Source of the DNA: Kiritimatiellia bacterium
GTDB lineage: Bacteria > Verrucomicrobiota > Kiritimatiellia > B70-G9
Assembly (NCBI GenBank): GCA_012961745.1
Contig: DTYT01000041.1
Location: 1 to 33,372 of the forward strand
Direction of reading: 5' to 3'
Length of the DNA stretch: 33,372 bases
Of the stretch, positions 5,062-31,489 are shown one piece after another; position 1 is the first letter of the stretch, and every line of letters starts with the position of its first letter. The notes under the pieces were generated by a model, which had not been told where the DNA came from, made no database searches, and was given only the letters and a program-made list of their open reading frames with translations. The translations under genes and the position numbers were made by a program.

Positions 5062-6330
5062 ATGATGGTCGTCGCCATCCTTACGGCATCCCTGTCGCTG
5101 GCCGCCGCCGTGTTCTTCGGCACCCTGTTCCGCGCCTACACCTACACCGGGCGCGCACAGGCCGACCGGCTGGCCGAAAAGTATCCTGCTATGCGACGCA
5201 AGGTGGAATTCTGGGCTCCCCGCTGGGAGGAACTCTGCTCGACTCTGCAATTGCTCATGGTCGCTTCCCGTCTTCTTTTCGTTATTGCTGCCGTCCTGTT
5301 ACTGACCCGTCAGGATGTTTCTCCCTCAGTCTGGCTGGGCGCTGCAGTCGCCTTGAGCCTCTTGTGTCTGTTCCTCCTGGAGCTTCTGCCGGATGCGCTG
5401 GCTGCTGCCTTTTCCGACCGGATCTCAGCCCGGACCCTGCCTCTGACTTCCCTGGTGGCGGTATGTGTCCGTCCCCTTGCCTGGTCCTTGGCCTGCGCTG
5501 CACGACTGTTACGGCGAGCGGTGAGCTCGGGCTCTGTGGAAGAGGACCGGCCCACGCATGAAGAAGCAATCCTCTCCATGGTGGGCCCGGATCAGGACAG
5601 CGATCTGGAAGCCGAAGAAAAGCAGATCATCCGCAGCGCATTGGAATTCAGCGACACGGTGGCACGCGAGATCATGACCCCGCGGGTGGACGTAATTGGA
5701 CTGGAAGATTCCACCCGGATTTCCGAGGCAGTCTCCATCATCAGACGTACAGGCCGCTCGCGGTACCCGGTATTTCACGAGGATATGGATGACATACTGG
5801 GCGTGGTCCACGTGAAAGATCTTCTGGTTCTTCTGGGCGAGGGCAAGGGTTCTTCGCCGGTGATCAGCGCCGTGAAACCGGTGCCCTTCGTCCCCGAATC
5901 CATCCCTATCAGCGACCTGCTCCAGTTGCTCCGGTCTCAGCAGGTACAACTGGCGGTCATCGTGGACGAATACGGCGGAACCTCGGGCGTGGTCACCATT
6001 GAAGACATCCTTGAAGAACTTGTCGGTGAAATCCACGACGAATATGACGTACGCGAAGTCTCCGCGCGCCATCTACCCGATGGCTCCGTAGTCATCAGTG
6101 CCCGGACCCCGGTCTCCGAAGCCAACACCCTCGCCGCCGTTCATATTCCCGAGGGAGAAGACTACGACTCGGTGGGCGGATACATCTTCAGTGTCCTGGG
6201 ACGGATTCCGCGCGCCGGCGAAACGGTAGACGGCGAAGATTTTACCCTCACCGTGCAGGCCGCCGACCAGCGGCAGATTCATCTGGTGAGAATCACTCCG
6301 AAGCACACACCCGCATCTGCCGCAACATGA
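5062..6330 (+). CDS. DUF21/CNNM transmembrane domain + CBS pair + CorC_HlyC domain protein (hemolysin-family, CorC/TlyC-like)
   Basis: N-terminal hydrophobic helices. Then EEKQIIRSALEFSDTVAREIMTPRVDVIGLE (entry into the CBS pair), YPVFHEDMDDILGVVHVKDLL, VIVDEYGGTSGVVTIEDILEELVGEI, and a C-terminal CorC_HlyC-like segment. The ATG at 5062 directly follows the ybeY stop, with AGGAGG 5 nt upstream. Confidence 0.88.
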   Translation: MMVVAILTASLSLAAAVFFGTLFRAYTYTGRAQADRLAEKYPAMRRKVEFWAPRWEELCSTLQLLMVASRLLFVIAAVLLLTRQDVSPSVWLGAAVALSLLCLFLLELLPDALAAAFSDRISARTLPLTSLVAVCVRPLAWSLACAARLLRRAVSSGSVEEDRPTHEEAILSMVGPDQDSDLEAEEKQIIRSALEFSDTVAREIMTPRVDVIGLEDSTRISEAVSIIRRTGRSRYPVFHEDMDDILGVVHVKDLLVLLGEGKGSSPVISAVKPVPFVPESIPISDLLQLLRSQQVQLAVIVDEYGGTSGVVTIEDILEELVGEIHDEYDVREVSARHLPDGSVVISARTPVSEANTLAAVHIPEGEDYDSVGGYIFSVLGRIPRAGETVDGEDFTLTVQAADQRQIHLVRITPKHTPASAAT

Positions 6331-8778: not shown

Positions 8779-9939
8779 CTATTCGTTTTCTTCAGCAGGG
8801 GACACCGCTGGAAATATGAGACGGACCCGGGTGCCCTGATTGGGCCGACTTTCTACTTCAATGCGGCCGGAATGCTGCTCCACAATTTTCCTGGCGATAG
8901 CCATACCCAGTCCCATCCCGCCTCCTGCAGCCCGCGTGGTGAAATACGGCTCGAAGAGCCGCTGCATCACTTCGGCTGGCATGCCCGGGCCAGTGTCCTC
9001 CACGCATATCTCCACTTCACCATCCACTTTCCTCGTCATTACCCTTACTTCACCCGCCGTGGTGGAAGCCGCCTGGATGGCATTGGTGACTACATTGTGG
9101 ATCGCCCGCAGAAGCTGGCCGCGATCCCCGATGATATGCGGTACGCTTTCCCCGGTCTCGAACACCGGGTGGGGTGGAGAGCCCGCCTGCACGAAATTTA
9201 CGGCCACCCGAACGTCTTCGAGCAACTGCGCCGGATGGATTTTCTCCCGGCGCCTGCCGAGCTCGCCTTCCCGCCACATTGCAGCTAGATCCCGGCAGCG
9301 CCGTACGTTGTTCTCAATGATCTGTAGGTAGCGCAAGGCTTCCTCCCAATCCCCGTGCTCATTCTGCGACTTCTTCTCCAGTTCATCGGCAAGCATCTCC
9401 GTGTACCCGATAATGGTAGTAAGAGGGTTCCTCAGGTCGTGCAGTAACTCTGCTGATGCCTCTCCCAGCCGTGCCAGTTTTTCCAGGCGCGCCTTCTCCT
9501 CCACGGTGCGCCGGTTCAGCTCCCGCAGCTCCGCGATCAGCCGCAGCTTCTGCCGCTCGCGGCGCGTCCGTTCCACGTTTCGACGTACGACCCGCACCAT
9601 CTCGTGGGTATCAAAGGGCTTCGTTATATAGTCGGTGGCACCCAAGCGCAGGGCCTGCTGCGCGGTTTCCAAGGTGCCGTATCCGGTCAACACGATAACC
9701 GAAATCCGCCGGTCGATTTCACGTATTCTAGCCAGCCCCTCTATACCGTTCGTCCCCGGCATCCGGATGTCGATCACCACGGCATCGGCACCCAGATCCT
9801 GCAGCAGGCGGGCACCTTCATCCACGTTTGACGCAAGCAGTACATTGAATTGCTCCTTGAGAATGATCCTCAGGCTCTGGCGGGGTCCTTCTTCATCGTC
9901 GATCACCAACACTCGAGGTCGGTCAATGGTGGCCATCAT
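8779..9939 (-). CDS. Hybrid two-component protein: N-terminal receiver (REC), coiled-coil linker, HisKA and HATPase_c
   Basis: REC: RVLVIDDEEGPRQSL...DAVVIDIRMPGTNGIEGL...VIVLTGYG...DYITKPFD. H-box ELLHDLRNPLTTIIGYTEML. N/G boxes IHNVVTNAIQA and VEDTGPGMP...GGGMGLGMAIARKIVEQHSG. ATGATG at 9939/9936 is preceded by AAGGGAGGATA (strong SD). The longer ORF-track start at 10176 adds a Cys/His-rich leader and is not supported. Confidence 0.85.
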   Translation of the reverse strand: MMATIDRPRVLVIDDEEGPRQSLRIILKEQFNVLLASNVDEGARLLQDLGADAVVIDIRMPGTNGIEGLARIREIDRRISVIVLTGYGTLETAQQALRLGATDYITKPFDTHEMVRVVRRNVERTRRERQKLRLIAELRELNRRTVEEKARLEKLARLGEASAELLHDLRNPLTTIIGYTEMLADELEKKSQNEHGDWEEALRYLQIIENNVRRCRDLAAMWREGELGRRREKIHPAQLLEDVRVAVNFVQAGSPPHPVFETGESVPHIIGDRGQLLRAIHNVVTNAIQAASTTAGEVRVMTRKVDGEVEICVEDTGPGMPAEVMQRLFEPYFTTRAAGGGMGLGMAIARKIVEQHSGRIEVESRPNQGTRVRLIFPAVSPAEENE

Positions 9940-9984
9940 TATCCTCCCTTTCCGTGCCATCACGATGGATTGCCTACCGCTTGT

Positions 9985-10007
9985 CTGCGGGCACATTTCT
10001 CCCGCAG
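9985..10007. repeat. Perfect 7-bp inverted repeat CTGCGGG-N9-CCCGCAG in the divergent intergenic region
   Basis: Read directly: ctgcggg (9985-9991), cacatttct, cccgcag (10001-10007). It lies about 46 nt upstream of the REC-kinase start and about 90 nt upstream of the putative -35 for the KAS-like operon. Its function (operator or leader hairpin) is unknown, and it could occur by chance. Confidence 0.4.
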
Positions 10008-10094
10008 TGTGCGCGCAGCGGTGAGCACAAGCGATGCCAATACGAAATTGTCCAGATATGGGGGGGGAATTTGGAACTACCCCACATCTTGTGC

Positions 10095-10124
10095 TTGACG
10101 GTGTGCAAAAATGTAAACTATGAA
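10095..10124 (+). promoter_or_regulatory. Candidate sigma-70-type promoter for the KAS-like/kinase operon (TTGACG-N18-TATGAA)
   Basis: TTGACG at 10095-10100 and TATGAA at 10119-10124, within the only AT-richer stretch of this intergenic region. It sits about 37 nt upstream of the GTG at 10161. This is sequence pattern only, and the promoter consensus of the host is unknown. Confidence 0.35.
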
Positions 10125-10160
10125 CAAAAGCGTACAGGCAGGACGGGGAACCCCGGCACG

Positions 10161-11387
10161 GTGATAACACGCACACCAGTCATAACCGGCATTGGCGTAG
10201 CGGCGCCGAACGGGCTCGGACTGGACCGGTTCTGGAAAAATACACTTCAGCGGAAAAGTGGCGTGACTACCGTATCCCTCTTCGGCGCCGAGGGCCTGCC
10301 GTGTCGCATTGCGGGCGAAGTGTCCGAACTACGGGAAAATGACTGTACCCTACCACCGGGCCTGACACGCGCAACCCTCTTGGCCTTGCACGCTGCCCGA
10401 CTCGCCCTGACGGATGCCCGGCTGGTCCGCGAGCACGCCCCTGAAGATGAACCGGTACCGGTAATACTCGGTACAAGTACCGGCAGCCCGGAACCCCTCC
10501 CCAGGCAGTGGCCCTCCGATAAAGGTGCCGACGATGAATTTGTATACCAACCCGCTTGCACTTCACCGCAAGCCCAGGCCGTCTGGTCTATCCAGCGCCT
10601 CGGTGATCTCAATGGCCCCGTAGTCACCCTCTCAGGCGGCTGGACCGCGGGCCTTGAGGCTGTATCACTCGCTGCCGAATGGGTTCGGATGGGACGCTAC
10701 CGTATCGCGTTGGCGGGCGCCGTGGAAGCCCCACTGTCACGGCGCGTACTGGAGTCTTTCCTTGAATCCGGCGGGCTGGCCGCCCGCGCGGATCCCGAGG
10801 GGGTTCCCCGTCCCTTTGATCGTGACCGGGACGGCTGGGTTCTCTCGGAAGGTGCCGCGGTTGTCGTCGTGGAATCCGCGACATCTGCATGGGCGCGGGA
10901 AATGCAGCCTTATGCCTGTGTCGCCGGGTGTTATTCGTCTGGCGGTCGCAAGTATTCTGACATGGCCGAATCCCTCGCGCAGGCGATCCGAGGATGCCTT
11001 GCGGAGGCTTCCCTGCTGCCGGAACACATCCAGTACGTCTGCGCCAACGCCACTGGCGAGCGTACCACGGATGTGGCTGAAATCGCCGCTCTGAAACGGG
11101 CTTTCGGCAGGCACGCCTACCGATTGGCGATCAGCTCTATCAAGGGAGTCGTCGGTAATCCACTGGCCGCGGCCGGCCCTATGCAGGTCGCGGCGGCTGC
11201 CATGAGCATCCGTGAAAAACGTATTCCTCCTACTGCCAATCTGCGGGAGCCCGATCCCCAATGTGATCTGGACTGCGTGCGGGACCGGGCGCGACAGGTG
11301 GCGGTGCGCGCCGCGCTCGTCAATGCGCATGGCCGGGATGGAAACAGTCGCTGCATAGTCATGACCACCGCGGAGGGTACTGCATGA
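10161..11387 (+). CDS. Beta-ketoacyl-ACP synthase (FabF/FabB-fold) homologue lacking the Cys-His-His catalytic triad; predicted pseudoenzyme
   Basis: KAS blocks are retained: VITGIGVAAPNGLG, CRIAGEV, RPFDRDRDGWVLSEGAAVVVVES, SSIKGVVGNPLAAAG and IPPTANL.EPD..CDLD. The nucleophile position reads TLSGGWTAG (TGG at 10641-10643). The first His position reads CANATGE (AAC at 11046-11048). The second reads VGNPLAAAG (AAT at 11157-11159). The GTG at 10161 gives the usual short leader before VITG. The stop overlaps the next start (ATGA at 11384-11387). Confidence 0.8.
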   Translation: MITRTPVITGIGVAAPNGLGLDRFWKNTLQRKSGVTTVSLFGAEGLPCRIAGEVSELRENDCTLPPGLTRATLLALHAARLALTDARLVREHAPEDEPVPVILGTSTGSPEPLPRQWPSDKGADDEFVYQPACTSPQAQAVWSIQRLGDLNGPVVTLSGGWTAGLEAVSLAAEWVRMGRYRIALAGAVEAPLSRRVLESFLESGGLAARADPEGVPRPFDRDRDGWVLSEGAAVVVVESATSAWAREMQPYACVAGCYSSGGRKYSDMAESLAQAIRGCLAEASLLPEHIQYVCANATGERTTDVAEIAALKRAFGRHAYRLAISSIKGVVGNPLAAAGPMQVAAAAMSIREKRIPPTANLREPDPQCDLDCVRDRARQVAVRAALVNAHGRDGNSRCIVMTTAEGTA

Positions 11388-13888
11388 TCACGGCATGGCT
11401 GCTCTTCGGGATGGTTTTGGTCAATCTGACCGTAGCCTTGACAGTATACCTTACTAATCCCCGACGAGGCGCGAACCGTGCTTTTCTCATACTCGGCATG
11501 CATATGGGACTGTGGTCGGCATCCTCGCTGTTCTTGGTTTCGGCCAGCTCCCTCCGCGAAACTGAAATGTGGTTACGCACCTTCTTTGGCCTGGCGGCGT
11601 TCTTCCCGACATCCTTCACAATACTCTACCAGGCGGTCAAACTGGACGCCGACCGGCTGACCGAACCGGCAGTGCGCTCTCGGCTGCTTGCGTTTACCGG
11701 CGTAGTAGCCGCGGTGGCGGCATTTCATCCGGCATTTCTCAGTCTGCTGCATCCTCGGGAGGCCTCCGAGCTGCCTCCGGACGGTGTGCGATTCGGTCCC
11801 CTGTTCGTTTTCTACGGACTTTATCTCGTTCTGAGTGGAATAGTAGGAATCCTTTGCTTTCTCAGGGATAATCGCAGGACACAGGGAATCCGGCGTACCG
11901 AAATCCAGTACGTGGCTGCCGGATTCGCCTCCGCTTTCGCTATCGGTATCACTACCGTGATATTCATTCCCTATCTCTCCGGCCGTCCGCAGGGCGTCCT
12001 TTGGGGACCGGTGGTGGCCTCCGCGGCGTTGAGTCTGGTGGTGGCCTACGGCATAGCAACTACCAATATCATGGATGTATCCCAACTCATGCGGCGTATT
12101 TTTGGTTATGCACTGCTGCTGTTGTCCCTCTCCGGGTTGTACGCCCTGGTGCATCTGGTCGTCGCCCTCCTCCAGAGCAGAACCGGTTCCGATGCGCTCT
12201 GGCTGCCAGCCTTTGTGGCGGTGCTGGTTGTGGCGGCCTCGATGACTCCCGCCCAGGGCATTATGCGCCGACTCGCCCGCCGCCTTCTCATTTCTCCCCG
12301 GGAGGTCAATATTTCGCGGGCGATGGCGGCTGCGGGAGAAGTGATGTCTCCCGTCTCGACCGTGGACCGGCTGCTCTTGCGGTTCGCGAACGTAATCCAC
12401 GAGTATTTCGCCGCGTCGCACGTGGCGATCCTGATACGCAAAGGCAACGGCTTCGCGCAGGTCCAGCCTTCCCAACCCCGGGGTGGCCGCCCACTGCTGT
12501 ACCTGCCCGCGAGTGACCCGCTGATCCGGCACCTTCAGTCTTCGGGTTCCATTGTCAGCCGCCCTACCCTGCGACGACGCGGATCGGATGACCGCGCCGT
12601 ACTTCTGGCGAAACTGACCATGCTGAAAGCCGAACTCGCCGGGGGGATATCCGTGCGCGGCCGCCTGCAAGGCATCCTGCTGGTCGGTCCCCGTCCGGGT
12701 GGCGCAGTCTTCACCCGGCTGGAGCGGGTGGCCTTCCAACTTCTTCTGGGACAACTCGGGATCGCCCTGGAGAATGCGCTGTTGTATACCGAAGTACAGA
12801 ACAGCAAGATCTACAACGAAATCCTTCTCGAACATCTCCCTTCGGGAGTCATTGCGGCCGATAAGGCCGGCCGGATTACCGTTTGCAACCGGGAAGCGTG
12901 CCGGATCCTGAACGTGCAAAGGAACACTGTATTGGGACGAGCCCTGACTGCCATACCCCAGCCGTTGCACGCCCTGATGGACGATGTAATCCGAAGCGGC
13001 CGTGAGGTGCGGGACAAGGAAATTGTCCTCCCCGCAGGGGGAACCGAGACCCCGCTGCGCGTGGGTGGCGCGCGGGTTCACAATGACCGCGGCAGGCTCC
13101 TGGGAACCATCTTCACCCTCAGCGACCTGAGCCGGGTGAAGGAGCTGGAACAACAGGTACGCCGCTCCGACCGGCTGGCCAGTGTAGGAACGCTCTCTGC
13201 GGGGATGGCCCACGAAATCAAGAATCCCTTGGTGGCTATCAAGACCTTCGCACAACTGCTTCCGGAAAGATACAATGAACCCGACTTCCGGGAGACCTTC
13301 TCCCAGCTTCTACAAAAGGAAGTCGAACGCATCGACGACATTGTCACCCAGCTGCTGAACTTTGCACGCCCACGCAAGGTGGCTTCCGAACTTTGTCATC
13401 TCCATGAAGTCATCCGCCGGTCCCTGAAACTGATCCAGCAACAGGTGGAAAAACGCAACATCTCGCTGGAATGCCGTTTGGATGCCCCCCGTGATGCGAT
13501 CCGGGGAGACCATGCCCTGCTGGAACAGACGTTCCTCAATTTCTTCATTAACGCCATGGAAGCGATGAACCATAGGGGCAGCTTGAGCGTGACCAGCGAT
13601 CTCCTCGAAGACCCCGGGCACGACCACGACCCTTCCCATATTCGCGTGCGTGTACAAGACAGCGGACAGGGTATCGCACCGGAACATATCGAGCGGATCT
13701 TCGATCCTTTTTTCACCACCAAAGAAAACGGTACCGGGCTCGGTCTCTCTGTGGCTCATGAAATAATAGAGGAACACGGCGGGAGCGTGGAAGTAAGCAG
13801 CCGCCTCGGACAGGGAACCACTTTCACTCTGGTATTTCCCTTAGCTGAACAATGCATTGCTCCCGGACCCGACCAGGATGAATGCTGA
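11384..13888 (+). CDS. Membrane sensor histidine kinase: N-terminal multi-TM (HisKA_7TM-like) domain, GAF/PAS-like regions, HisKA and HATPase_c
   Basis: About 7 hydrophobic helices occupy the first 300 aa or so (NRAFLILGMHMGLWSASSLFL...). PAS-like segment LEHLPSGVIAADKAGRITVCNREACRILN. H-box GMAHEIKNPLVAIKTFAQLLPERYNEPDFRETF. N box FLNFFINAMEAM. G boxes VQDSGQGIAPEHIERIFDPFFTTKENGTGLGLSVAHEIIEEHGG. GGAGGG lies 7-12 nt upstream of the ATG. Confidence 0.88.
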   Translation: MITAWLLFGMVLVNLTVALTVYLTNPRRGANRAFLILGMHMGLWSASSLFLVSASSLRETEMWLRTFFGLAAFFPTSFTILYQAVKLDADRLTEPAVRSRLLAFTGVVAAVAAFHPAFLSLLHPREASELPPDGVRFGPLFVFYGLYLVLSGIVGILCFLRDNRRTQGIRRTEIQYVAAGFASAFAIGITTVIFIPYLSGRPQGVLWGPVVASAALSLVVAYGIATTNIMDVSQLMRRIFGYALLLLSLSGLYALVHLVVALLQSRTGSDALWLPAFVAVLVVAASMTPAQGIMRRLARRLLISPREVNISRAMAAAGEVMSPVSTVDRLLLRFANVIHEYFAASHVAILIRKGNGFAQVQPSQPRGGRPLLYLPASDPLIRHLQSSGSIVSRPTLRRRGSDDRAVLLAKLTMLKAELAGGISVRGRLQGILLVGPRPGGAVFTRLERVAFQLLLGQLGIALENALLYTEVQNSKIYNEILLEHLPSGVIAADKAGRITVCNREACRILNVQRNTVLGRALTAIPQPLHALMDDVIRSGREVRDKEIVLPAGGTETPLRVGGARVHNDRGRLLGTIFTLSDLSRVKELEQQVRRSDRLASVGTLSAGMAHEIKNPLVAIKTFAQLLPERYNEPDFRETFSQLLQKEVERIDDIVTQLLNFARPRKVASELCHLHEVIRRSLKLIQQQVEKRNISLECRLDAPRDAIRGDHALLEQTFLNFFINAMEAMNHRGSLSVTSDLLEDPGHDHDPSHIRVRVQDSGQGIAPEHIERIFDPFFTTKENGTGLGLSVAHEIIEEHGGSVEVSSRLGQGTTFTLVFPLAEQCIAPGPDQDEC

Positions 13889-15923
13889 GCCCACAACGTG
13901 TGTCATTTACAGCGCCGACCGATACTGGAGCCGGCGCCTGGCCGCAGAATTGGCTCTTCACGATGTGGATGTCACGATATCCTCTGACCGTCGCAGACTC
14001 TTAAGGAAAATTGATAGCGGCCACAGCAGCGCGGTGGTGGTGGATCTGCTTTCGCCCGGCTCGCTGCAATTGGTGCGCATGCTGTTGCAGCACCGACCGG
14101 GCCTGCCGGTCATCGCCTGCGGAAAGACCCGCACATCTCCCTTTATGGATGCACTCCACACCGGGATCTTTGCCGCGCTCGACCGCGGCGGACCGATTCA
14201 ATCCATCGCTTCGGTAGTCAGGTCGGCATTGATGTTCCGCCCTGAGACTTCTCCGGGAACGAAACCAACCTCGGAAGGCGAAAAGCAGCTCGACGACACC
14301 GCCGGGTCTCCGGCAACCATCCCCGCGCTGCTACCATCCCCCGGGCTCTTTCTGCATAACCCCACGCCCGAAGCGTTAACCGCTTATCTGGAGGCCTGGC
14401 TGCAGGCCCTATCCGCGCGATTCGGTGTGCTTCGCAGCAGCCTGTTCCTCAAAGACCCGGATACCGGCGAGTTCGCCGCGGCAATCACCATCAACTGCAC
14501 ACCCGAAATCAGGGAAACGAAGCTGCGGCCTGACGCGGGTCTGCCGACATACCTGGAAAAAGAGGCAACCACCCTGATCAGCGGCAGCGCACCGCGTCTC
14601 CTCGCCAGCCAGCTTGCCCGTATCGGCGCGGATCTTGTCGTGCCCCTGCTGGGGGATGATGGCCTGATCGGGTGGGCTGGCCTGTCCCGCCCCGCGGATG
14701 GTTCACACTGGGACGCCAACCGGCGCCGTGAGATAGCAGGCGAGTTCGTCCGCATGGCCGGCTTCCTCACACAAAGCCAGCAAGCGGCCGTCGCGGACTC
14801 GCTGGAACCGGCAATACAGGTGTTCGGGGAGGCTCTCGCCTGCGGGCTGGTAGCGGTGGACAGCAAAGCGCGCATCATTTTCATTAATCCAGTGGCGGCC
14901 CGCCTGCTGGACCTTCAGCCGGATATCGGCCCGGGAAGCGAGATCGAAGCCCTTGGCACCACGATGGCCGACATGGTCTACCGGGCGCTGGCAGGTGAGA
15001 GGGTCGAACGCAGGTTCAATGTCCCTGGCCGACCGCAGATTCTCATTCTGGCGCAGGTACTGCCGGTAGTGCGTTCGGGACGCCGTATGGCCGTTGCTGT
15101 ACTTCGCGAGATAATCCCCGAGGTGCCATCTGAAGAATCTCCCACGCCAGAGGGGGGCCCCAAGGAGGTTGTCGACGAAGACATCGTATGGGAGCAGGTG
15201 GCCGAAGGGCTCGCCCATCAGATCCGCAATCCGCTGGTGGCCATCAAGACTTTCGCCCAGCTCCTGCCGGAACGCTATCAGGACCCGGACTTCCGCACGG
15301 AGTTTGGCGTACTGGTCAACCGGGAAGTCGAACGGCTCAACGGCCTTCTCAACAGCATCGCCGCTCTGGGCCGCCCGCTGCAACCGAACCGGCGGCCGGT
15401 AGATATCCATATGCTGATAAAGCGCGGGCTGAACATGGCCCTGGTTCGCAACAAGCGGGCACCCCTCAAGAAAATCGAAGTCCACGTGCCGGATCATCTG
15501 CCGCGTATACCGGCGGACGAGGAAATGCTCACCGAGGCCTTCGTTCAACTGTTCACCAATGCTATCGAAGCCGCGACGCAGAGAAAGATGCCGCGCATAA
15601 GCGTCAGCGTGCAGGTGTGTGCCCCCCCGGACAGTGGATTGATTGGCATACAGATCGAAGACAACGGGCCCGGAATACCGGAAGACGTCCGCAAGTTTCT
15701 GTTCTCGCCGTTCTGTGGCACCAAGGCCCACGGGCTGGGATTCGGGCTGTGCATCGCCCGGCGTGCGATACGTGCCCACGGCGGCACTATAGAAATTGCC
15801 AGTTCCCGCGCCGGCACCCAGGTCTTCGTGAAACTTCCCTTTGGAGCCCAGAAGCCTGAAACACCCAGCACCCAGCGGAGGTCGCAACGAAATGAAGAAC
15901 AAGCACCTGCTGATCGTGGATGA
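13878..15923 (+). CDS. Cytoplasmic sensor histidine kinase: degenerate receiver-like N-terminus, GAF/PAS-like regions, HisKA and HATPase_c; paralogue of the preceding kinase
   Basis: No hydrophobic helices. The N-terminus has a REC-like layout (CVIYSAD...SSAVVVDLLSPGSLQLVRML...PVIACGKT...FAALDRG) with an incomplete acidic pocket and the conserved Lys position changed. H-box GLAHQIRNPLVAIKTFAQLLPERYQDPDFRTEF. N box FVQLFTNAIEA. G boxes IEDNGPGIP and GLGFGLCIARRAIRAHGG. The ATG at 13878 overlaps the upstream stop by 11 nt; the ORF-track start at 13857 is a TTG. Confidence 0.85.
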   Translation: MNAEPTTCVIYSADRYWSRRLAAELALHDVDVTISSDRRRLLRKIDSGHSSAVVVDLLSPGSLQLVRMLLQHRPGLPVIACGKTRTSPFMDALHTGIFAALDRGGPIQSIASVVRSALMFRPETSPGTKPTSEGEKQLDDTAGSPATIPALLPSPGLFLHNPTPEALTAYLEAWLQALSARFGVLRSSLFLKDPDTGEFAAAITINCTPEIRETKLRPDAGLPTYLEKEATTLISGSAPRLLASQLARIGADLVVPLLGDDGLIGWAGLSRPADGSHWDANRRREIAGEFVRMAGFLTQSQQAAVADSLEPAIQVFGEALACGLVAVDSKARIIFINPVAARLLDLQPDIGPGSEIEALGTTMADMVYRALAGERVERRFNVPGRPQILILAQVLPVVRSGRRMAVAVLREIIPEVPSEESPTPEGGPKEVVDEDIVWEQVAEGLAHQIRNPLVAIKTFAQLLPERYQDPDFRTEFGVLVNREVERLNGLLNSIAALGRPLQPNRRPVDIHMLIKRGLNMALVRNKRAPLKKIEVHVPDHLPRIPADEEMLTEAFVQLFTNAIEAATQRKMPRISVSVQVCAPPDSGLIGIQIEDNGPGIPEDVRKFLFSPFCGTKAHGLGFGLCIARRAIRAHGGTIEIASSRAGTQVFVKLPFGAQKPETPSTQRRSQRNEEQAPADRG

Positions 15924-17298
15924 CGAGGCCAGCACGCGCGAGTCGCTGCGGATGGTCTTCGAAAAGGATTATGCCGTATCGCTGGCCACGAGTGCCGCCG
16001 AAGCCCGACAAATAGTGGCCCGAAGCAATATCGACCTGGTTCTGCTGGACATAATCATGCCAGATGTCGACGGCATCACGTTCCTTCACGAACTCCACAC
16101 CGAATACCCCGACCTCCCGGTGGTGATGATAAGCGCCGCTTCATCCGTAAAGCGGGTGGTGGAAGCCATGAAGGAGGGTGCCTGGGATTATGTGACCAAG
16201 CCTTTCGATGTGGCCGAACTGCGCCACATCGTCTCGCGGGCCCTCGAAAACTCCCGGCTCAGGAGAAAACTGCATGAACTACAATGTGAAGTGGCCGAGG
16301 AGTTCCCCGTAGACCGCATAGTAGGGAATGCGCCTTTGTTTGCCCAGGCTCTCCAGGTTGTCCGCAAGGCCGCCTCAACCGATTCCACCATCCTGATCAT
16401 CGGTGAAAGCGGTACGGGGAAGGAATTGATCGCTCGTTTGGTTCACCGGCTGAGTCCCAGACGGGATGAACCGTTCGTCCCGGTGCATTGCGGGGCGATT
16501 CCGGAACAGCTGATGGAAAGCGAACTGTTCGGCTACGAAAAAGGCGCTTTCACCGGCGCCGACCGCCGCAAGCCCGGTCGTTTTGATATGGCCGGATCGG
16601 GAACCATCTTTTTCGACGAGATAAGTGAAACGCCGCATTCCGCACAGGTAAAGCTGCTCCGTGTACTGCAGGAGCGGGAGTTCGTCCGGGTAGGTGGCTC
16701 AGAGGTGGTCCGGACCGACGCGCGCATAGTCGCCGCAACCGCACAGAATCTTGAGAAACTGGTCGAGCAAGGCCGCTTCCGACGGGACCTCTTCTACCGG
16801 CTGAGCGTGGTGCCGGTGCGTCTGCCTCCCCTCCGCAATCGGCGGGAGGATATTCCCCTGCTGGCACAGTACTTCCTGAACTACTTCGGCCGCAAGGTCG
16901 GTTCCCGCCTAAGCAGTATCGACCGCGACGCCATGCGCCTGCTCCTGCGCTATGACTGGCCCGGCAACATCCGGGAACTACGCAACCTCATCGAGCGAAT
17001 GGCCGTACTGCACCGTGACCAGGATATGTTGCAGCCGGAGTTTCTACCGGAAGAATTCCATGTCCAGAACCTGTTTGCCCCCCTGCACGCCGGAACCTTC
17101 ACACTGGAGGAGGCAGTCAACGACTTCGAGCGTCATCTGGTGATCGACGCTCTCAAGAAAGCCGGCGGAGTGCAAACGCGCGCGGCTGAGCTGCTGGGAA
17201 CAACCCGCCGCATACTGAAGTACCGGATCGAGAAACTCAACATCCAACCGCAGGACTTCCGCCCCACCGTATCGTCTCCCCAGAAGGAGCGTCCCTGA
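15892..17298 (+). CDS. Sigma-54-dependent response regulator (NtrC-family enhancer-binding protein: REC, AAA+ and Fis-type HTH)
   Basis: REC: HLLIVDDEASTRESL...DLVLLDIIMPDVDGI...VVMISAASS...DYVTKPFD. AAA+: ILIIGESGTGKELIARLVH, the GAFTGA loop ESELFGYEKGAFTGA, and WPGNIRELRNLIER. HTH: TRAAELLGTTRRILKYRIEKL. The ATG at 15892 has a GGAGG 10 nt upstream and overlaps the upstream kinase by 32 nt. Confidence 0.93.
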   Translation: MKNKHLLIVDDEASTRESLRMVFEKDYAVSLATSAAEARQIVARSNIDLVLLDIIMPDVDGITFLHELHTEYPDLPVVMISAASSVKRVVEAMKEGAWDYVTKPFDVAELRHIVSRALENSRLRRKLHELQCEVAEEFPVDRIVGNAPLFAQALQVVRKAASTDSTILIIGESGTGKELIARLVHRLSPRRDEPFVPVHCGAIPEQLMESELFGYEKGAFTGADRRKPGRFDMAGSGTIFFDEISETPHSAQVKLLRVLQEREFVRVGGSEVVRTDARIVAATAQNLEKLVEQGRFRRDLFYRLSVVPVRLPPLRNRREDIPLLAQYFLNYFGRKVGSRLSSIDRDAMRLLLRYDWPGNIRELRNLIERMAVLHRDQDMLQPEFLPEEFHVQNLFAPLHAGTFTLEEAVNDFERHLVIDALKKAGGVQTRAAELLGTTRRILKYRIEKLNIQPQDFRPTVSSPQKERP

Positions 17299-24659: not shown

Positions 24660-26051
24660 TCATTCGGGAAGCCCAGGATACCCCACACCCAGAAGACTCG
24701 AAATTGCGGCGTGAAACCGGCGGTGCTGCGTGTCAGCCCATTTTTCAAGTGCACGGACCCTGTCACGCAGTTTCTTCAGATCAGGGTTCCCCGGTGCCCC
24801 CCGGGACCTCCGCCGCTTGACCGACTCCCGCACATCCGTTCCTCCCAGTTGCGCCAGTCTTGCTTTCACCGACCGGTAGGCATCCCGGAAGGGAATCCCT
24901 TCCACCGCTAGATCCGCAGCCGCGTCAGCCGCAAACACCGTGGGATCAAACGCATCCTCCATCGCCTTGGTGTCCAGCCTCATTTCATCGATCACCAGCC
25001 TCATGATGTGTAGGCTGGCTTCAACCGTCCGGAGCGAATCCATCAGCAGGGGCTTGATCTCCTGCAGATCCCGCTGGTATCCCGAGGGCAACCCGCGCAC
25101 AATCTCAGCCGCCGCCTGGCCTGCAGCCAGCACCACCGCCGAGCGGGCACGTACCAGCTCCAGGACATCCGGGTTGTGCTTCTGAGGCATGATACTGCTG
25201 CCGGTACACAAGTCCTCCGGGAGAACCACGTAGCCGAATTCCGGTGCCGCGAAGATGATCAGATCCGTCGCCAGTCCTGACAAAGTAAGCATCGTCCTTC
25301 CCAATGCCGAGATAAGTCTCGCTTCAAGCTTGGCTCTGCCGGTCACCGCGTACGTCACGTTCACTACCGGTCCGCGGAATCCCAGAATTTCGGCCTCATA
25401 GTCGCGGTCTATCGGCAGGGGAACCCCGTATCCGGCGCCAGCTCCCAGCGGACAACGGTCAGCAGCCCGGTAGATGTCGGTAAGCTCCTGGGCATCGTCC
25501 AGCAGGCCCTCAGAAAACGACGCCAGCCACACCGCGACGGTTGACGGCATGGCACGCTGCATGTGAGTCCTCCCCACCATCGGTGTCGTACGGTATCGCG
25601 ATGCCGAACCAAGCAGGCTTCCGACAGTTGCGTTCAACTGCCGGACCACCTCTGGAATCCGGTCCTTGATATACAATCGCAGAGCAACCGCCACTTGGTC
25701 ATTTCGACTCCGACCGAGATGAACCTTGCGCCCGACTTCACCCAGGCGCGCACTCAGCTCCCTCTCCACTGCGAGATGCACGTCCTGATCGCTGCGTCGT
25801 ATCCGGAACGTCCCCCGGCGGGACCGTCGCATGAGGCACACCAGCTCACTGATGAGCCGCTTTTCCTCCGCGGGCGTAAATACAGGACCGGGCGACCTCA
25901 GGCGAGCCAGGGCCCGCACGTGAGCGGCCGTGCCGATACAATCATATTCCAGCAGCTCCCGGTCGCAGAGAAGGTCTTCGGCCGCGGTATACTCCAGAAC
26001 CCTCTGGGAAACGTTTCCTACCAGTGTGGTGCGGCGGCGTCTCCGGCTCAT
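24660..26051 (-). CDS. argH: Argininosuccinate lyase
   Basis: Fumarate-lyase superfamily signatures with ArgH-type context: HLGRSRNDQVAVALRLY, GRTHMQRAMPSTV and GSSIMPQKHNPDVLELVR. Length is about 463 aa. The N-terminus (MSRRRRRTTLVGNV) lacks the usual LWGGRF opening. Confidence 0.85.
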   Translation of the reverse strand: MSRRRRRTTLVGNVSQRVLEYTAAEDLLCDRELLEYDCIGTAAHVRALARLRSPGPVFTPAEEKRLISELVCLMRRSRRGTFRIRRSDQDVHLAVERELSARLGEVGRKVHLGRSRNDQVAVALRLYIKDRIPEVVRQLNATVGSLLGSASRYRTTPMVGRTHMQRAMPSTVAVWLASFSEGLLDDAQELTDIYRAADRCPLGAGAGYGVPLPIDRDYEAEILGFRGPVVNVTYAVTGRAKLEARLISALGRTMLTLSGLATDLIIFAAPEFGYVVLPEDLCTGSSIMPQKHNPDVLELVRARSAVVLAAGQAAAEIVRGLPSGYQRDLQEIKPLLMDSLRTVEASLHIMRLVIDEMRLDTKAMEDAFDPTVFAADAAADLAVEGIPFRDAYRSVKARLAQLGGTDVRESVKRRRSRGAPGNPDLKKLRDRVRALEKWADTQHRRFHAAISSLLGVGYPGLPE

Positions 26052-26181
26052 TTCATGAGACTCCCGGTGCCCGGGGCAAAGAAAAAAATCGCATGTTCAG
26101 TGTTTATCTCCTGGGGGACGCCAAGTCAAGCGGCATGCCTTGGAGTGCATTGCGGGAATCCACTATCCGGCGCTCCCGGTC

Positions 26182-27489
26182 TCAGGAGCCGTCCGATTTC
26201 GAGGTCGACCCGGGACCAGTTGCTGCCATTTCATCCGCATAGGCCATGATTCTTTTCAGCGCTTCGGGCGAGAATTCCGCATGATCGAGAAACCTTTGGA
26301 TAATGCGGTTCATCCTCTGGGCTTCGCGGACCACTTGACTGTAAAGGACACTGCGGTTCTGCCGGAGCAGGAGCCGGCTGTGTTCGTCACCGGAGTCGGC
26401 GCTTCTCTCCAGACGGTCGAGCAGCTCAAGGGACCCGGCCACTGCCGTCAGAGGATTACGGATCTCGTGTGCGATCTCCGTGGCCATCTCGGCGGCTGCC
26501 TGAATCCGCTCTGCCATGCGGGCCTTGGTCTGCAGGTCAAGTAGCCGGGTGACGTCGGAAAACACGATCAGGTACCCGGAGGGCGAGTCTCCACAGCCTC
26601 CGTTGAGAACCCTGTAGATCTCCGATCCCGCAGGGAAACGGATGCGGCTGACCTCGAAGCGCGCATCGAACCGGCTTCCGTCCGTCCGCTTGAATTTCGC
26701 TGGTCGATCGCCTTGCCGCGTTTCGAGCCTGGCGATATCCAGCTCGCCATTCATGAACTCGCGGATATCGTGTCCTAGCAAATCGCCTTCTCCTCCACGT
26801 AACAGCTCGCACGCAGTCGGGTTGACCATGTATATCCTTCCGCGGGTGTCTATCAGGAGGAGGCCCACTCCCACCTTCTGGAAAACGGTATCTATCAGGT
26901 CGCGATATCTTTCGACGCGTGCATCAGCGAAGCGAAGACGACGTGACAGATAGGCACCGGCCATGCCGAAGAAGAGGAATACAAAACCCCGCATGCCCAG
27001 AGTTTCACCAATGGACGCCCAGTCGTAGCTCGGAGAATTTCCGCCGGCGTCGGGCAGCAGTCCGCTGCTTACCAGGACAACTACCAATGCGTACGCAAGA
27101 ATCCCTAAGAGGGATATTTCCAGAGCCATGGTAGGACCGGCGAGTATACCGGAAGAGAGGAACACCAGGGGATATAACATCGCCAGCTCGCTCCGCGGGC
27201 CGCCGGTAAAATAGACCAAGCCCGTCACCAGCAGGATGTCCACCACGCACTGCAAGGGGACCACCTGTCGTCCGCGGCTGACATCCTTGATCCAAAGTGC
27301 GTATGGAATCGTGGCGATGTATCCGAAGGCCACCAGCGCATAGAACGCCACGCTATCCATGTGCATAAAGAACGAAAGCACAACCACCGCCGCCGAAATG
27401 ATCGCCACCCGGATAAACACGACCACCACCAGTTCCCGCCAGCTCAAGATCCTCGGCTGTCCGTCTCCGGTTCTGACGACGGCGTCCAC
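26182..27489 (-). CDS. PilS-like membrane sensor: multi-TM domain, PAS and HisKA/DHp, but no HATPase_c catalytic domain
   Basis: The N-terminal 6-TM-type region includes VDILLVTGLVYFTGGPRSELAMLYPL. PAS-like segment VGLLLIDTRGRIYMVNPTACELL. H-box EMATEIAHEIRNPLTAVAGSLELL. X-region REAQRMNRIIQRFLDHA. The protein ends about 35 aa later with no N/G1/F/G2 boxes. The GTG at 27489 has a GGGGAGGAAAG SD. Confidence 0.8.
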   Translation of the reverse strand: MDAVVRTGDGQPRILSWRELVVVVFIRVAIISAAVVVLSFFMHMDSVAFYALVAFGYIATIPYALWIKDVSRGRQVVPLQCVVDILLVTGLVYFTGGPRSELAMLYPLVFLSSGILAGPTMALEISLLGILAYALVVVLVSSGLLPDAGGNSPSYDWASIGETLGMRGFVFLFFGMAGAYLSRRLRFADARVERYRDLIDTVFQKVGVGLLLIDTRGRIYMVNPTACELLRGGEGDLLGHDIREFMNGELDIARLETRQGDRPAKFKRTDGSRFDARFEVSRIRFPAGSEIYRVLNGGCGDSPSGYLIVFSDVTRLLDLQTKARMAERIQAAAEMATEIAHEIRNPLTAVAGSLELLDRLERSADSGDEHSRLLLRQNRSVLYSQVVREAQRMNRIIQRFLDHAEFSPEALKRIMAYADEMAATGPGSTSKSDGS

Positions 27490-27506: not shown

Positions 27507-28640
27507 TCAGAAAGCGACAATCTCATGCATCTTGAAGATCGGCAGATACATGCACAGCACCACGCCGCCCACCGTCACGCCCAGAAAAACGATGAGCAGC
27601 GGCTCGATCAGCGAAGTCAGCGCCGCCAAAGTCGCCTCAACCTCCGATTCATAAAACTCGGCTATCTTCTGAAGCATCTCGTCCACCTTGCCCGTCTGTT
27701 CGCCGGCCTCCAGCATGTGAATCAGCATGCGGGGATAGTTGGGATCCTGTCCCAGAGTCTTGGACAGAGGCTCACCTCGCTCCACGTCGTCGCGTCCCTT
27801 CATTACCGAGCGCGCCAGCACCCGATTGCCCACTGCGTAGGCCACGATATCCAACGCATGCAAGATCGGCACCCCGCTGCGCATCAGCTGGGCGAAAGTC
27901 GAGGCGAAACGGGCCAATGCAGCCTTCTTGTTGAGTTCGCCGAATACCGGCAATCGGAGCATGAAAGAATCCCACAGATAGGCTCCCGTGTCCGTCCTCT
28001 TGAACTTCCCGAAGCCGATTACGAACATTACCAGCCCGGCCGTCACGGCGAGTGAGTAATGCCGCACCGTGAAGCTGATGTTAACCAGCATCTGCGTGGG
28101 ACCCGGCAGTTTCGCTCCGAAGTCCGCGTAGATCTCCGCGAATCGTGGCACCACGAAAATAATCAATCCCGCGGTGATCATCGAGACCACACCCATCACG
28201 ATTACCGGATAGGTCATCGCCGAAATCACTTCCCGCCGAAGCTTTGCCCGCTCCTCAAGATACTGCGCCAGCCGCGCTGCGGTTTCCGCCAGTAGACCAC
28301 CGGTTTCCCCTGCCCGCATCATGCTGACGTAGAGCTGGTCGAAAATGTCCGGATAGACTGCCAGCGCCTCGGAAAACGACTTGCCGCCCTCGATCTCGGT
28401 ACGCACACCCTCGATCACGCTTCTGAAGGTCTTGTTGGTGCTCTGTTCCTCCAGAGCGTGAAGGGTCTTCACCACCGGCATACCCGAACCGAGCATGGCT
28501 GACATCTGCCGGGTGAAAATGGGCAGCTCTTTCAGTCGGATCTTGCGCGCACCCGGCACCCGGCGTCGCCTTGTTCCGGCCTTACCTGCCGCTACGCCAG
28601 ATACCGCCCGGGCCGCCTGCGCCTGTGCCATCGCCGCCAT
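27507..28640 (-). CDS. pilC: Type IV pilus / T2SS platform protein (GspF/PilC family)
   Basis: Two T2SSF-type repeats: FTRQMSAMLGSGMPVVKTLHAL...SFSEALAVYPDIFDQLYVSMMRAGETGG, and FASTFAQLMRSGVPILHALDIV...GEPLSKTLGQDPNYPRMLIHMLEAGEQTGKVDEML. It has three TM segments. The ATG at 28640 has a GAGGAGGAG SD. Confidence 0.9.
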   Translation of the reverse strand: MAAMAQAQAARAVSGVAAGKAGTRRRRVPGARKIRLKELPIFTRQMSAMLGSGMPVVKTLHALEEQSTNKTFRSVIEGVRTEIEGGKSFSEALAVYPDIFDQLYVSMMRAGETGGLLAETAARLAQYLEERAKLRREVISAMTYPVIVMGVVSMITAGLIIFVVPRFAEIYADFGAKLPGPTQMLVNISFTVRHYSLAVTAGLVMFVIGFGKFKRTDTGAYLWDSFMLRLPVFGELNKKAALARFASTFAQLMRSGVPILHALDIVAYAVGNRVLARSVMKGRDDVERGEPLSKTLGQDPNYPRMLIHMLEAGEQTGKVDEMLQKIAEFYESEVEATLAALTSLIEPLLIVFLGVTVGGVVLCMYLPIFKMHEIVAF

Positions 28641-28676: not shown

Positions 28677-30395
28677 TTAGCCTTCTCCACCGGTCACCCG
28701 CATAGCCTCCTCTATGCTGGTCACCCCTTCCTTGACTCTCTGGAGCCCCGCATTCCTCAAGGTTACCATTCCCTCCTGGATGGCCTTTTCCCGGATCGCT
28801 GCCGAGTCCGCGTTCCGCAGTACCAAGTCGCGAACCGCATCGCTCATCAATAGTATCTCCATCAGTGCGCCACGTCCCTTGAAGCCGACACTGTTGCACT
28901 TCGGACATCCCACCGGTTCATAGAAGGTCGCCCCGGCGAATTCCTCGGGATCCAAACGATTCACCCGGAGTACGTCGACCGGAATTTCCCTCTCCCTCTT
29001 GCATGCCGGGCACAGTTTACGAAACAGGCGCTGCGCCTGTGCCATGATCACCGCCGAGGCGATCATGAAAGGTTCAATGCCCATGTAAAGCATCCGCGCC
29101 ACCGCGCCGGATGCATCATTGGTATGCAGGGTGCTGAGCACGAGGTGTCCGGTGAGCGCGGCCTGGATCGCAATCTGCGCCGTCTCGCTGTCACGGATCT
29201 CGCCCACCATGACGATATCCGGGTCCTGGCGCAGGATCGAACGCAACGCCGAGGCGAATGTCAGACCCACGGAGGCGTGAGTCTGGACTTGGTTGATACC
29301 TGCCAGCTGGTATTCAACCGGGTCCTCAACCGTGATGATGTTCACCCCCGGATGGTTCAATTCTTGCAGACACGAATACAGCGTGGTCGTCTTGCCGCTT
29401 CCCGTCGGACCGGTCACCAGGATCATGCCGTGCGGCTGCTTAATGGCATACATGAGACGCTCGTAAGCCAGCTGGTCCAGCCCCAGTGCCGCCACGTTGG
29501 GTGCCAGCGCCGACTTGTCCAGGATGCGCATGACAATCTTCTCCCCGTGAATGGTGGGCAGAACACTCAGACGAATATCCGCCTCCTTGCCCAGAGCCCG
29601 GATCTTGAAGCGTCCGTCCTGGGGTACCCGGCGCTCCGCAATATCCAGGTTTCCCATGATTTTGATGCGGGAGGTGATCGCTCCTTGAAGCTGCTTGGGC
29701 GGACTAGGGCTTTCGTAGAGAACGCCGTCAACCCGATACCGCAAGCGCAGCGACTTTTCCAACGGTTCAATGTGGATGTCGCTTGCTCGCTTACGGATTC
29801 CCTCCACCAGTATGGAGTTGACGATGCGGATCACCGGGGCGTCCTCGGCCTTCTGCAGCATTTCATCCAGGCTCATATCCTCCTGTTGCTCCTGCCCCAG
29901 TTCAACGTCATCGGCGTCCTCGACATCCTTGAGAATCTCCTCCAGACCTTCGGTGGAGTCCTGGACAAAGCGCTGAAGGTTTTCGGCCACCTGGGTCTCC
30001 GGAGCTACCATGGGCACGATCTGCAGGCCGGTGATCGCGTGGAGCTCATCCACCACCACAACGTCAAAGGGATCGCCCAAGGCGATCATAAGCCGATCCT
30101 TCACCCGCATGATGGGTATGACCATGTGCATGCTCATGGTCTCCGTGGGCAAGATGTTGAGCAGTTCTTCGTCCAGCGAAAAATGGCGCAGGTTTATAGG
30201 CGGCATGTCCAAATATTCGGCAAGGGCGGCGGCCATTTCCTCTGGCTCCACAACCCCCTTCTCCACCAGCCGCTTCTCCAGTCGCTCGCCGGCCGTCGCC
30301 GCCTTCCGGCGCGCCTCTTCAATGTCGTCTGGACTGGCCGCGCCCCGGCGCACCAGGATGTCCAGCAGCCGGTTCTCTGTGCCTACCTTCGCCAT
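28677..30395 (-). CDS. pilB: Type IV pilus assembly ATPase (GspE/PilB family) with an N-terminal MshEN/T2SSE_N region
   Basis: Walker A ILVTGPTGSGKTTTLYS. Asp box NIITVEDPVEY. Walker B PDIVMVGEIRD. His box GHLVLSTLHTNDA. Tetracysteine CPACK...CPKC. T2SSE_N: MPPINLRHFSLDEELLNILPTE...MIALGDPFD. The true ATG at 30395 (MAKVGTENRLLDIL) has an AGGGTAAGAG SD, giving about 572 aa. The ORF-track start at 30617 is not supported. Confidence 0.92.
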   Translation of the reverse strand: MAKVGTENRLLDILVRRGAASPDDIEEARRKAATAGERLEKRLVEKGVVEPEEMAAALAEYLDMPPINLRHFSLDEELLNILPTETMSMHMVIPIMRVKDRLMIALGDPFDVVVVDELHAITGLQIVPMVAPETQVAENLQRFVQDSTEGLEEILKDVEDADDVELGQEQQEDMSLDEMLQKAEDAPVIRIVNSILVEGIRKRASDIHIEPLEKSLRLRYRVDGVLYESPSPPKQLQGAITSRIKIMGNLDIAERRVPQDGRFKIRALGKEADIRLSVLPTIHGEKIVMRILDKSALAPNVAALGLDQLAYERLMYAIKQPHGMILVTGPTGSGKTTTLYSCLQELNHPGVNIITVEDPVEYQLAGINQVQTHASVGLTFASALRSILRQDPDIVMVGEIRDSETAQIAIQAALTGHLVLSTLHTNDASGAVARMLYMGIEPFMIASAVIMAQAQRLFRKLCPACKREREIPVDVLRVNRLDPEEFAGATFYEPVGCPKCNSVGFKGRGALMEILLMSDAVRDLVLRNADSAAIREKAIQEGMVTLRNAGLQRVKEGVTSIEEAMRVTGGEG

Positions 30396-30424: not shown

Positions 30425-30439
30425 GCAGAATCGGTGCCA
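30425..30439 (-). promoter_or_regulatory. Candidate sigma-54 (-24/-12) promoter upstream of pilB
   Basis: The minus strand reads CTGGCAC-CGATT-CTGCT (GG at -24, GC at -12, correct 5-nt spacing), against the consensus TGGCAC-N5-TTGCW. The -12 GC is about 30 nt upstream of the pilB ATG at 30395, which leaves a short leader containing the SD. Pattern only. Confidence 0.45.
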
Positions 30440-30643: not shown

Positions 30644-31489
30644 ATGGCGATGGTGGCCGGATCTGACCAAAAGCCGGAAAAGGAATCCGAGGTTTGGAAC
30701 GCGATCGCGGCCTTCGAGCAAATCCTCGAAGCCATGCCCGATGACCGCGTGGCTCTCGAGTCTCTGTACGAAGCCTATCTGAAGATCGGGGACCAATCTT
30801 CGGCCCATAAGTACCTTCTGCGCCTCGCGCGGGTGGTAATCAGCGAAAGAGACGAGAAAGCCGCCCAAGAGCTGCTCAGCCGCCTCCAAAACTCGGGACC
30901 CCCAGACAAGGAAAGCGCAGTCCTGATCAAAGAACTTTCGGAACTGGTCAGCAAAAAGGAAGTGCCTCCGGCCCCCCCCCACACCCCAGCCCGGCACAAG
31001 CCGGTGGGTATAACCGCGGAACTCTCTCTCGCCTGGAAACTCCTCGAGGCGGGACATATCCAGCAGGACGAATATGATACAATTGTCAAGGATCTCTCCG
31101 AAAATTCCGCGAAGCATCTGAACACGCCGGTGACCGTCCTCCACGTTCTGGAAGACCGGCAGTTCCGCCACGCCAATAGCATCTTGGCGTTCCTTTCACG
31201 GGATAGCGGATTGCCCGTCATACCTCTCTCCCGTTTCGAAATCCCCCCCGAATGTTTCCGGCTGCTTCCGAACGAAATAATGGAACACCGCGGGGCAATC
31301 GTATTCGACACGATGGGTCGTGACGTTCTTGTGGCGATCCTCAATCCGTACGATGCGGAGCTCCAGCGCGAAGTCGAGGAAGCCACCCAGCGCAAATGCC
31401 ACTTCTTTCTCACCCCCGCAGCCGAATACGATGCCGCGCTCGCTGATATCCGCGCGAAAATAGCAGCCGAGAACGAAGGGAAGAAATAA
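30644..31489 (+). CDS. Stand-alone T2SS-E N-terminal (GspE_N / MshEN-like) domain protein with a helical TPR-like N-terminus and a Pro-rich linker
   Basis: The C-terminal half, AFLSRDSGLPVIPLSRFEIPPECFRLLPNEIMEHRGAIVFDTMGRDVLVAILNPYDAELQREVEEATQRKCHFFLTPAAEYDAAL, aligns by eye with the T2SSE_N segment of the neighbouring PilB (MPPINLRHFSLDEELLNILPTE...RLMIALGDPFD...). It has no ATPase domain. It is divergently transcribed from pilB. Confidence 0.7.
   Translation: MAMVAGSDQKPEKESEVWNAIAAFEQILEAMPDDRVALESLYEAYLKIGDQSSAHKYLLRLARVVISERDEKAAQELLSRLQNSGPPDKESAVLIKELSELVSKKEVPPAPPHTPARHKPVGITAELSLAWKLLEAGHIQQDEYDTIVKDLSENSAKHLNTPVTVLHVLEDRQFRHANSILAFLSRDSGLPVIPLSRFEIPPECFRLLPNEIMEHRGAIVFDTMGRDVLVAILNPYDAELQREVEEATQRKCHFFLTPAAEYDAALADIRAKIAAENEGKK

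Follow-up and report, generated by a model that had tools for sequence, protein, structure and literature searches.

A PilS-like sensor without a catalytic domain encoded in the type IV pilus operon of Kiritimatiellia, and its possible role as a phosphatase of PilR

What can a sensor of the PilS family still do once it has lost the domain that binds ATP, and on which regulator would it act? This question is raised by a gene, here called pilS', in a stretch of 33,372 nt (positions 1 to 33,372 of contig DTYT01000041.1, the window) from a Kiritimatiellia bacterium whose genome is a MAG of 1.99 Mb, 87% complete and in 361 contigs. A preliminary description of the window had placed the gene directly downstream of pilB and pilC, had let its product end after the DHp domain without an ATP-binding domain, and had counted three complete kinases in the window. 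All of this holds: both pilus genes lie immediately upstream, the three kinases are complete, and Pfam detects HisKA in the product but no HATPase_c (PF02518) even at E≤1. The features discussed below are collected in Table 1.

Table 1. Position and basis of the features at the pilS' locus and of related genes elsewhere in the same genome
Feature	Position	Strand	Basis or remark
pilS' CDS, CA-less PilS-family sensor, 435 aa	26182..27489	(-)	6TM - PAS - DHp - short C-terminal helix
Six-helix PilS-type membrane domain, residues ~17-180	26950..27441	(-)	Pfam PF25323 and AF2 helices
PAS domain, residues ~198-312	26554..26898	(-)	Pfam PAS/PAS_9; AF2 strands 209-312; Foldseek
DHp (HisKA) hairpin, residues 314-403	26281..26550	(-)	Pfam HisKA and AF2
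H-box H341-E-I-R-N345-P346	26452..26469	(-)	His341 codon at 26467-26469
Conserved C-terminal helix after the 'AEFSPEAL' motif, residues 408-424	26218..26268	(-)	Alignment and AF2
130-nt spacer, pilS' stop to argH start, without coding remnant of a CA domain	26052..26181	(-)	
argH, where other families have pilR and pilin genes	24660..26051	(-)	
pilC, T2SSF platform protein, same operon as pilS'	27507..28640	(-)	Pfam
pilB, MshEN and T2SSE ATPase	28677..30395, ORF to 30617	(-)	Probable ATG at 30395
Predicted sigma-54 -24/-12 promoter TGGCACcgattCTGC	30425..30439	(-)	~25 nt upstream of pilB ATG
Complete kinase	8779-10176	(-)	
Complete kinase	11384-13888	(+)	
Complete kinase	13857-15923	(+)	
Single sigma-54 EBP of the window	15841-17298	(+)	Overlaps kinase gene 13857-15923
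PilR orthologue of the window genome	C130:3921-5288	(-)	63% identical to K. glycovorans PilR
Major type IV pilin of the window genome	C252:1841-2158	(-)	Leader MKKGG/FTLVEIM

The pilS' frame opens with a GTG codon 17 nt past the pilC stop, with GGAGG 5 nt upstream. The match of the N-terminal part to 6TM_PilS (PF25323, residues 15-145) is barely above the cut-off (27.6 bits against 27), but an AlphaFold2 model built from 12 homologues (pLDDT 72) places six transmembrane helices in this region (17-41, 46-70, 77-95, 101-117, 119-141 and 157-205), followed by a PAS fold (Pfam PAS at residues 198-289) and a DHp hairpin (314-365 and 369-403). HisKA (PF00512) matches residues 333-402 with 43 bits, the H-box reads IAHEIRNP, and the loop region of the hairpin is ~9-12 residues longer than in canonical PilS. 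Past the hairpin the model contains only one 17-residue helix (408-424), with no CA-like fold, no pseudo-CA domain and no room for a CA domain. In the alignment this helix corresponds to the linker between DHp and CA and to the start of the CA domain of full-length PilS, and a variable tail follows it, so that 38 residues lie past the 'AEFSPEAL' column in the window protein compared with a median of 161 in canonical PilS. Foldseek against the PDB matched the model only to generic PAS-DHp sensor kinases. Judged from its sequence, PilS' is a genuine CA-less PilS-like sensor, and the absent CA domain should exclude autophosphorylation in cis.

A missing domain might of course be encoded nearby, or have been lost by accident. 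As the preliminary description had maintained, no catalytic domain hides downstream or in another frame: the 130 nt between the pilS' stop and the argH ATG at 26051 are closed in all three frames, and then comes argH, the only copy in the MAG, which passes the TIGR00838 cut-off. A recent pseudogene, or a normal pilS truncated by a sequencing or assembly error, has nothing beyond the missing domain to speak for it, and we give this explanation practically no chance. Apart from the lack of any CA remnant in the spacer, independent assemblies carry orthologues with 84, 66 and 47% identity, and others down to ~30%, that end at the same place as the window protein. Close relatives carrying a full-length version had been named beforehand as the sign of a pseudogene; among the orthologues found there is none. 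The dN/dS of pilS' against the 84%-identical orthologue is 0.15 overall, 0.13 in the DHp domain and 0.09 in the membrane domain, which is the most constrained part of the protein, while the DHp value against the 66%-identical orthologue is 0.07.

The same architecture is found clade-wide. By word-indexed search we retrieved 12 homologues with lengths of 410-443 aa (100 to 32% identity), from Kiritimatiella glycovorans, Pontiella sp. and 'Verrucomicrobia bacterium' among others, none of which matches PF02518, whereas all further matches (≤30% identity) are PilS proteins of 525-600 aa with HATPase_c. In an exhaustive profile search that took in 1.84 billion representatives, ~60 clusters scored above 205 bits, all of them ≤457 aa, with canonical PilS coming next. 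A FastTree phylogeny of the shared region of 130 sequences groups 49 of the 51 short proteins in one pure clade with a support of 1.0, and the two that fall outside resemble truncated canonical PilS. The clade thus comprises about 49 protein clusters at 50% identity, with lengths of 390-457 aa compared with 525-600 aa for canonical PilS, and its hosts are Kiritimatiellia and other Verrucomicrobiota. When 301 genomes of the phylum were surveyed, full-length matches were confined to a handful of families, belonging to the same class or to two other lineages, always in open frames of ≤500 aa except for two of 913 aa (G023) and 816 aa (G160) that are read-through or spurious, and no canonical long PilS was seen beside them. 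An apparent 788-aa pilC-pilS' fusion in G160 was dismissed as an artefact of a long open frame that runs across pilC in a different frame. Since the C-terminal helix corresponds to the linker between DHp and CA and to the first part of the CA domain, one ancient truncation shortly past the CA start seems to have given rise to the family. These sequence comparisons show that the CA loss is conserved and under purifying selection.

Still shorter relatives exist. In G065 a PAS-DHp protein of 238 aa without a membrane domain is encoded between pilC and pilR, and G098 and G107 contain versions of ~300 aa in the arrangement argH - pilS'' - pilR - ABC (these reduced genes lie at L043:4980-5696, L044:4971-5894 and L045:~4900-5630). 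It appears from the latter order that argH has become linked to the cluster repeatedly, in differing arrangements.

If the kinase function is gone, the residues that serve it should tell. Work on four HisKA kinases by Willett & Kirby (PMC3510030) assigned the acidic residue at H+1 to kinase activity only and the T/N at H+4 to phosphatase activity only, while replacing the His by Ala lowered phosphatase activity modestly (CrdA~P had a half-life of 53.5 min on its own, 0.7 min in the presence of wild-type CrdS and 2.6 min with the His-to-Ala variant). We counted these positions in the CA-less clade (n=49) and in canonical PilS (n=79). N or T at H+4 is retained in 47 of 49 CA-less proteins (96%) and in 77 of 79 canonical ones (97%), but an acidic residue at H+1 is found in only 23 of 49 (47%) as against 78 of 79 (99%), and a second canonical set has H-E in 108 of 108 sequences. 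From these proportions it follows that the kinase-only residue is released from selection and the phosphatase-only residue is still held. The His itself is present in 44 of 49 CA-less proteins (~90%; 79/79 in canonical PilS) and in 19 of 21 genomic pilS' loci. At least six lineages have independently put K, Y, D or Q in its place, for example K in a Pontiella MAG (L002), where the identical protein occurs on four contigs and the neighbouring PilR is intact, Y in one genome of genus g4, and D or Q in five clusters. The window protein retains both His341 and N345. An E-x-x-N phosphatase motif had been pointed out in its H-box; the motif is there, but only the N/T is specific for the phosphatase and the E belongs to the kinase (PMC3510030).

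The natural target of such a sensor would be PilR. In K. glycovorans and Pontiella the gene order is pilB pilC pilS' pilR, followed by pilins, an ABC-2 exporter and a TPR protein and preceded by a divergent MshEN-only gene, and pilR comes directly after pilS', often overlapping it, in 15 of 21 tabulated related loci. The absence of a pilR or pilin gene after pilS', noted earlier, is therefore true of the window but a peculiarity of its lineage: in this sub-lineage (the orthologues with 84, 66 and 47% identity) argH occupies the position of pilR and the same ABC, TPR and ExeA genes follow. The comparison of loci shows pilB-pilC-pilS'-pilR, preceded by a sigma-54 promoter, as the ancestral arrangement. 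In the window genome, an orphan PilR orthologue lies on C130, flanked by lpxB and a polyprenyl synthase gene. The orthology suggests that pilR moved to this other locus in the window lineage and that the PilS'/PilR pair was retained. The EBP encoded in the window, which had been proposed as the target of PilS', does not qualify: it is only 40% identical to PilR, its gene overlaps the preceding kinase gene and belongs to a kinase operon of its own, and the true, 63%-identical orthologue is the one on C130. PilR orthologues have kept their receiver residues (DD in 16/16, D52 in 15/16, T80 in 16/16 and K102 in 16/16) as well as the GAFTGA contact to sigma-54, from which we conclude that PilR should still be an activator controlled by phosphorylation. 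In the orthologue of G239 (L032:9445-10824), encoded beside a pilS' that is otherwise normal, the phospho-acceptor Asp has become V ('MISVINM'). Other details of these loci are a pilC that the 47%-identical relative carries as two ORFs (141 and 236 aa; L007:8856-9988), maybe owing to a frameshift or an assembly error, and a divergent gene for a 281-aa protein with only an MshEN-type (PilB N-terminal) domain in the window (30644-31489, +), a gene that almost every related locus also has upstream of pilB.

Control of the operon itself points in the same direction. The predicted element upstream of pilB reads TGGCACcgattCTGCT and would drive pilB-pilC-pilS'. A matching -24/-12 element precedes pilB in 12 of 16 related loci (L002, L004, L006, L007, L025-L027, L029-L031, L033 and L034) with an expected background of ~0.1 per locus, and it is the sole invariant block in an otherwise divergent intergenic alignment. 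Given this conservation and the presence of rpoN, pilS', together with pilR where the two are linked, most plausibly sits inside a sigma-54 operon activated by PilR. The major pilin gene has a weaker sigma-54-like element (TGGAAC-N5-CTGCT) ~100 nt upstream.

The preliminary description had left three roles for PilS', a dedicated phosphatase, a decoy, or a protein phosphorylated in trans; the motif statistics favour the phosphatase. With moderate confidence, we propose that PilS' would act purely as a phosphatase of PilR~P, gated by a signal. It would combine a sensing domain of six TM helices with PAS and with the DHp hairpin that docks PilR, the whole CA domain being lost. The DHp domain would bind PilR~P, and the N/T at H+4 would position a water molecule to hydrolyse the aspartyl phosphate. 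Loss of PilR~P would then shut off sigma-54-dependent transcription of the pilus genes, the operon of pilS' included, and as dephosphorylation would silence its own operon PilS' would exert negative feedback. The signal for the membrane domain is probably, by analogy to Pseudomonas PilS, the pool of pilin awaiting assembly; in P. aeruginosa, pilin bound to the TM segments of PilS raises its phosphatase activity towards PilR (10.1101/323923). Architecture, conservation, linkage to pilR, promoter and motif counts are shown by the sequences; that PilS' is a phosphatase, answers to pilin and represses is what we infer. That relatives without TM helices keep a PAS-DHp protein between pilC and pilR suggests that the contact between DHp and PilR is the invariant core of the system.

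A phosphatase needs a phosphorylated substrate, and candidate donors for PilR would be acetyl phosphate or another NtrB-type kinase. Acetate kinase (AckA) is present in all four genomes checked, circumstantial evidence that acetyl phosphate is available. On C303 an NtrB-like kinase is paired with the EBP that is the closest paralogue of PilR, which makes cross-talk onto PilR conceivable. More tentatively, this might amount to a two-component system without a kinase, in which PilR, lacking a dedicated kinase, would be charged by a metabolic donor or by cross-talk, and the output of PilS' would be a regulated dephosphorylation in answer to the membrane pilin pool. Pilus expression would then be tied to the fermentative energy state of the cell, and the sensor would only say 'stop'.

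Several observations sit less easily with a phosphatase-only PilS'. The His is conserved to ~90%, more than a pure phosphatase needs, and a role in phosphotransfer would fit as well. As phosphatases, EnvZ and NtrB are greatly stimulated by their CA domain, and a DHp domain on its own may therefore be a weak enzyme. In the window genome pilS' and pilR are unlinked and paired by orthology, in a MAG whose 87% completeness and 361 contigs mean that a partner gene missing from it is no proof of absence.

It is rather unlikely, though in line with the conserved His (44/49 clusters, 19/21 loci), that PilS' is a phosphotransfer intermediate or one half of a split kinase, with His341 phosphorylated in trans by the CA domain of another kinase, as in split kinases, or by a receiver domain, as with Spo0B and ChpT, before the phosphoryl group passes to PilR. 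Hybrid kinases are encoded in these genomes, and PilR, which keeps its acceptor Asp, must obtain its phosphoryl group from something. Known split kinases (Rv0600c/Rv0601c, or HK1/HK2, of M. tuberculosis and CheA3/CheA4 of R. sphaeroides) share with PilS' a His-bearing helical module without an ATPase of its own, as do Spo0B and ChpT, phosphotransferases of the DHp type. However, the CA part of a split kinase is encoded by the adjacent gene, and we found no CA-only gene near pilS' at the 21 loci examined, nor did we see a stand-alone CA gene in the window genome (87% complete). Spo0B and ChpT carry a pseudo-CA domain that is absent from PilS'. The candidates that a search for HATPase_c brought up were set aside: matches on C216 and C243 are pieces of hybrid kinases at contig edges, those on C161, C24 and C128 are, to judge from their sequences, GyrB, MutL and a topoisomerase-VI-B-like protein, and short HATPase_c ORFs (182-200 aa) in the complete genomes G023 and G203 belong to hydrogenase/Rex operons unrelated to pili. 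The latter, HATPase_c-only proteins of 200 and 182 aa from K. glycovorans and another complete genome (L041:3116-3718 and L042:3368-3916, both on the minus strand), have their genes between those for a NuoE-like and a NuoF-like subunit in a putative [FeFe]-hydrogenase operon, with a gene for a Rex-like repressor adjoining. Nor is a component missing that a relay would have to replace, ordinary stand-alone Hpt proteins being present in G023, G203 and G089, and the argument that a missing Hpt would call for a Spo0B-like role was dropped. Finally, the acidic H+1 residue, required for phosphorylation of the His by a CA domain (PMC3510030), is gone in half of the clade, and the His was lost in the six or more lineages mentioned above, in L002 next to an intact PilR.

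PilS' might alternatively regulate without catalysis, as an anti-activator or decoy binding the PilR receiver, as a RetS-like heterodimer partner for the DHp domain of another kinase, or by DivL-like reverse signalling, in which the phosphorylation state of PilR would be reported to the pilus machinery through the membrane domain of PilS'. The architecture without any enzymatic domain, the position of the gene next to pilC, and a DHp domain and C-terminal helix that remain constant even in relatives lacking the TM domain are all compatible with this. There are also precedents in DivL of Caulobacter and PsmA of Streptomyces, proteins derived from histidine kinases that have no autokinase activity and still signal (summarized in PMC12963549). 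These have, however, kept a degenerate CA domain and lost the His, PsmA having also lost E/DxxT/N, while PilS' proteins mostly keep the His and N/T. Pure binding would require neither the N/T at H+4 nor the adjacent Pro, yet both are as conserved as in bifunctional PilS (N/T 96 and 97%), and PsmA, a true pseudokinase, has lost a motif that the PilS' clade has not. We therefore hold a non-catalytic role to be improbable.

A phosphatase-only PilS' would depart from canonical PilS in a few well-defined respects. The two share the six-TM N-terminus, the PAS domain, a HisKA DHp domain with an H-E-I-R-N-P H-box and the link to pilB/pilC and to the sigma-54 EBP PilR, and canonical PilS proteins are the best matches of PilS' outside its clade. 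PilS' differs in lacking the whole CA domain (~130-160 residues), in its longer DHp loop, in the unconstrained, kinase-specific acid at H+1, and in being encoded inside pilB-pilC-pilS'-pilR where the canonical pair pilS-pilR lies beside pilA. DHp domains without CA have been described as response-regulator phosphatases with the phenotype of a constitutive phosphatase (Zhu et al. 2000 and Kramer & Weiss 1999, as cited in PMC3510030). The engineered EnvZ 'domain A' and the DHp-only fragments of NtrB resemble PilS' in this respect, and NtrB-NtrC is of the same kinase/EBP class as PilS-PilR, but these are laboratory truncations, whereas PilS' is natural, ancient and membrane-anchored and has kept its sensory domains. 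Histidine kinase-like proteins with HisKA and without HATPase_c, of the AF_1472 type from Archaeoglobus fulgidus, are listed in censuses as unstudied (PMC1183210, PMC5847659); they belong to an unrelated lineage, carry other sensor domains, lie outside any pilus context and have no known partner.

Thus HisKA proteins without HATPase were known from censuses, and phosphatase activity of the DHp domain alone from engineered fragments, but our literature searches found no description of a CA-less PilS lineage and nothing specific on pili in Kiritimatiella. Bifunctional histidine kinases are mostly investigated through engineered kinase-dead or phosphatase-dead mutants; the clade looks like their natural counterpart, and it provides an evolutionary test of residue assignments made by mutagenesis. 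It could also offer a simple system in which to follow the gating of a phosphatase by a membrane signal without a kinase background, and it raises the question of which donor phosphorylates PilR in Kiritimatiellia. The annotation of these proteins, now labelled 'sensor histidine kinase PilS' or left generic, can be corrected accordingly. The window genome encodes further kinase-like proteins that lack a working CA domain: a 399-aa PAS-PAS-DHp protein that ends after its DHp domain (C358:2740-3936, -), a kinase-like ORF whose DHp-like C-terminus has Q in place of His (C49:2541-4259, +), and a HisKA protein whose CA-like region is degenerate (C101:1866-3812, -).
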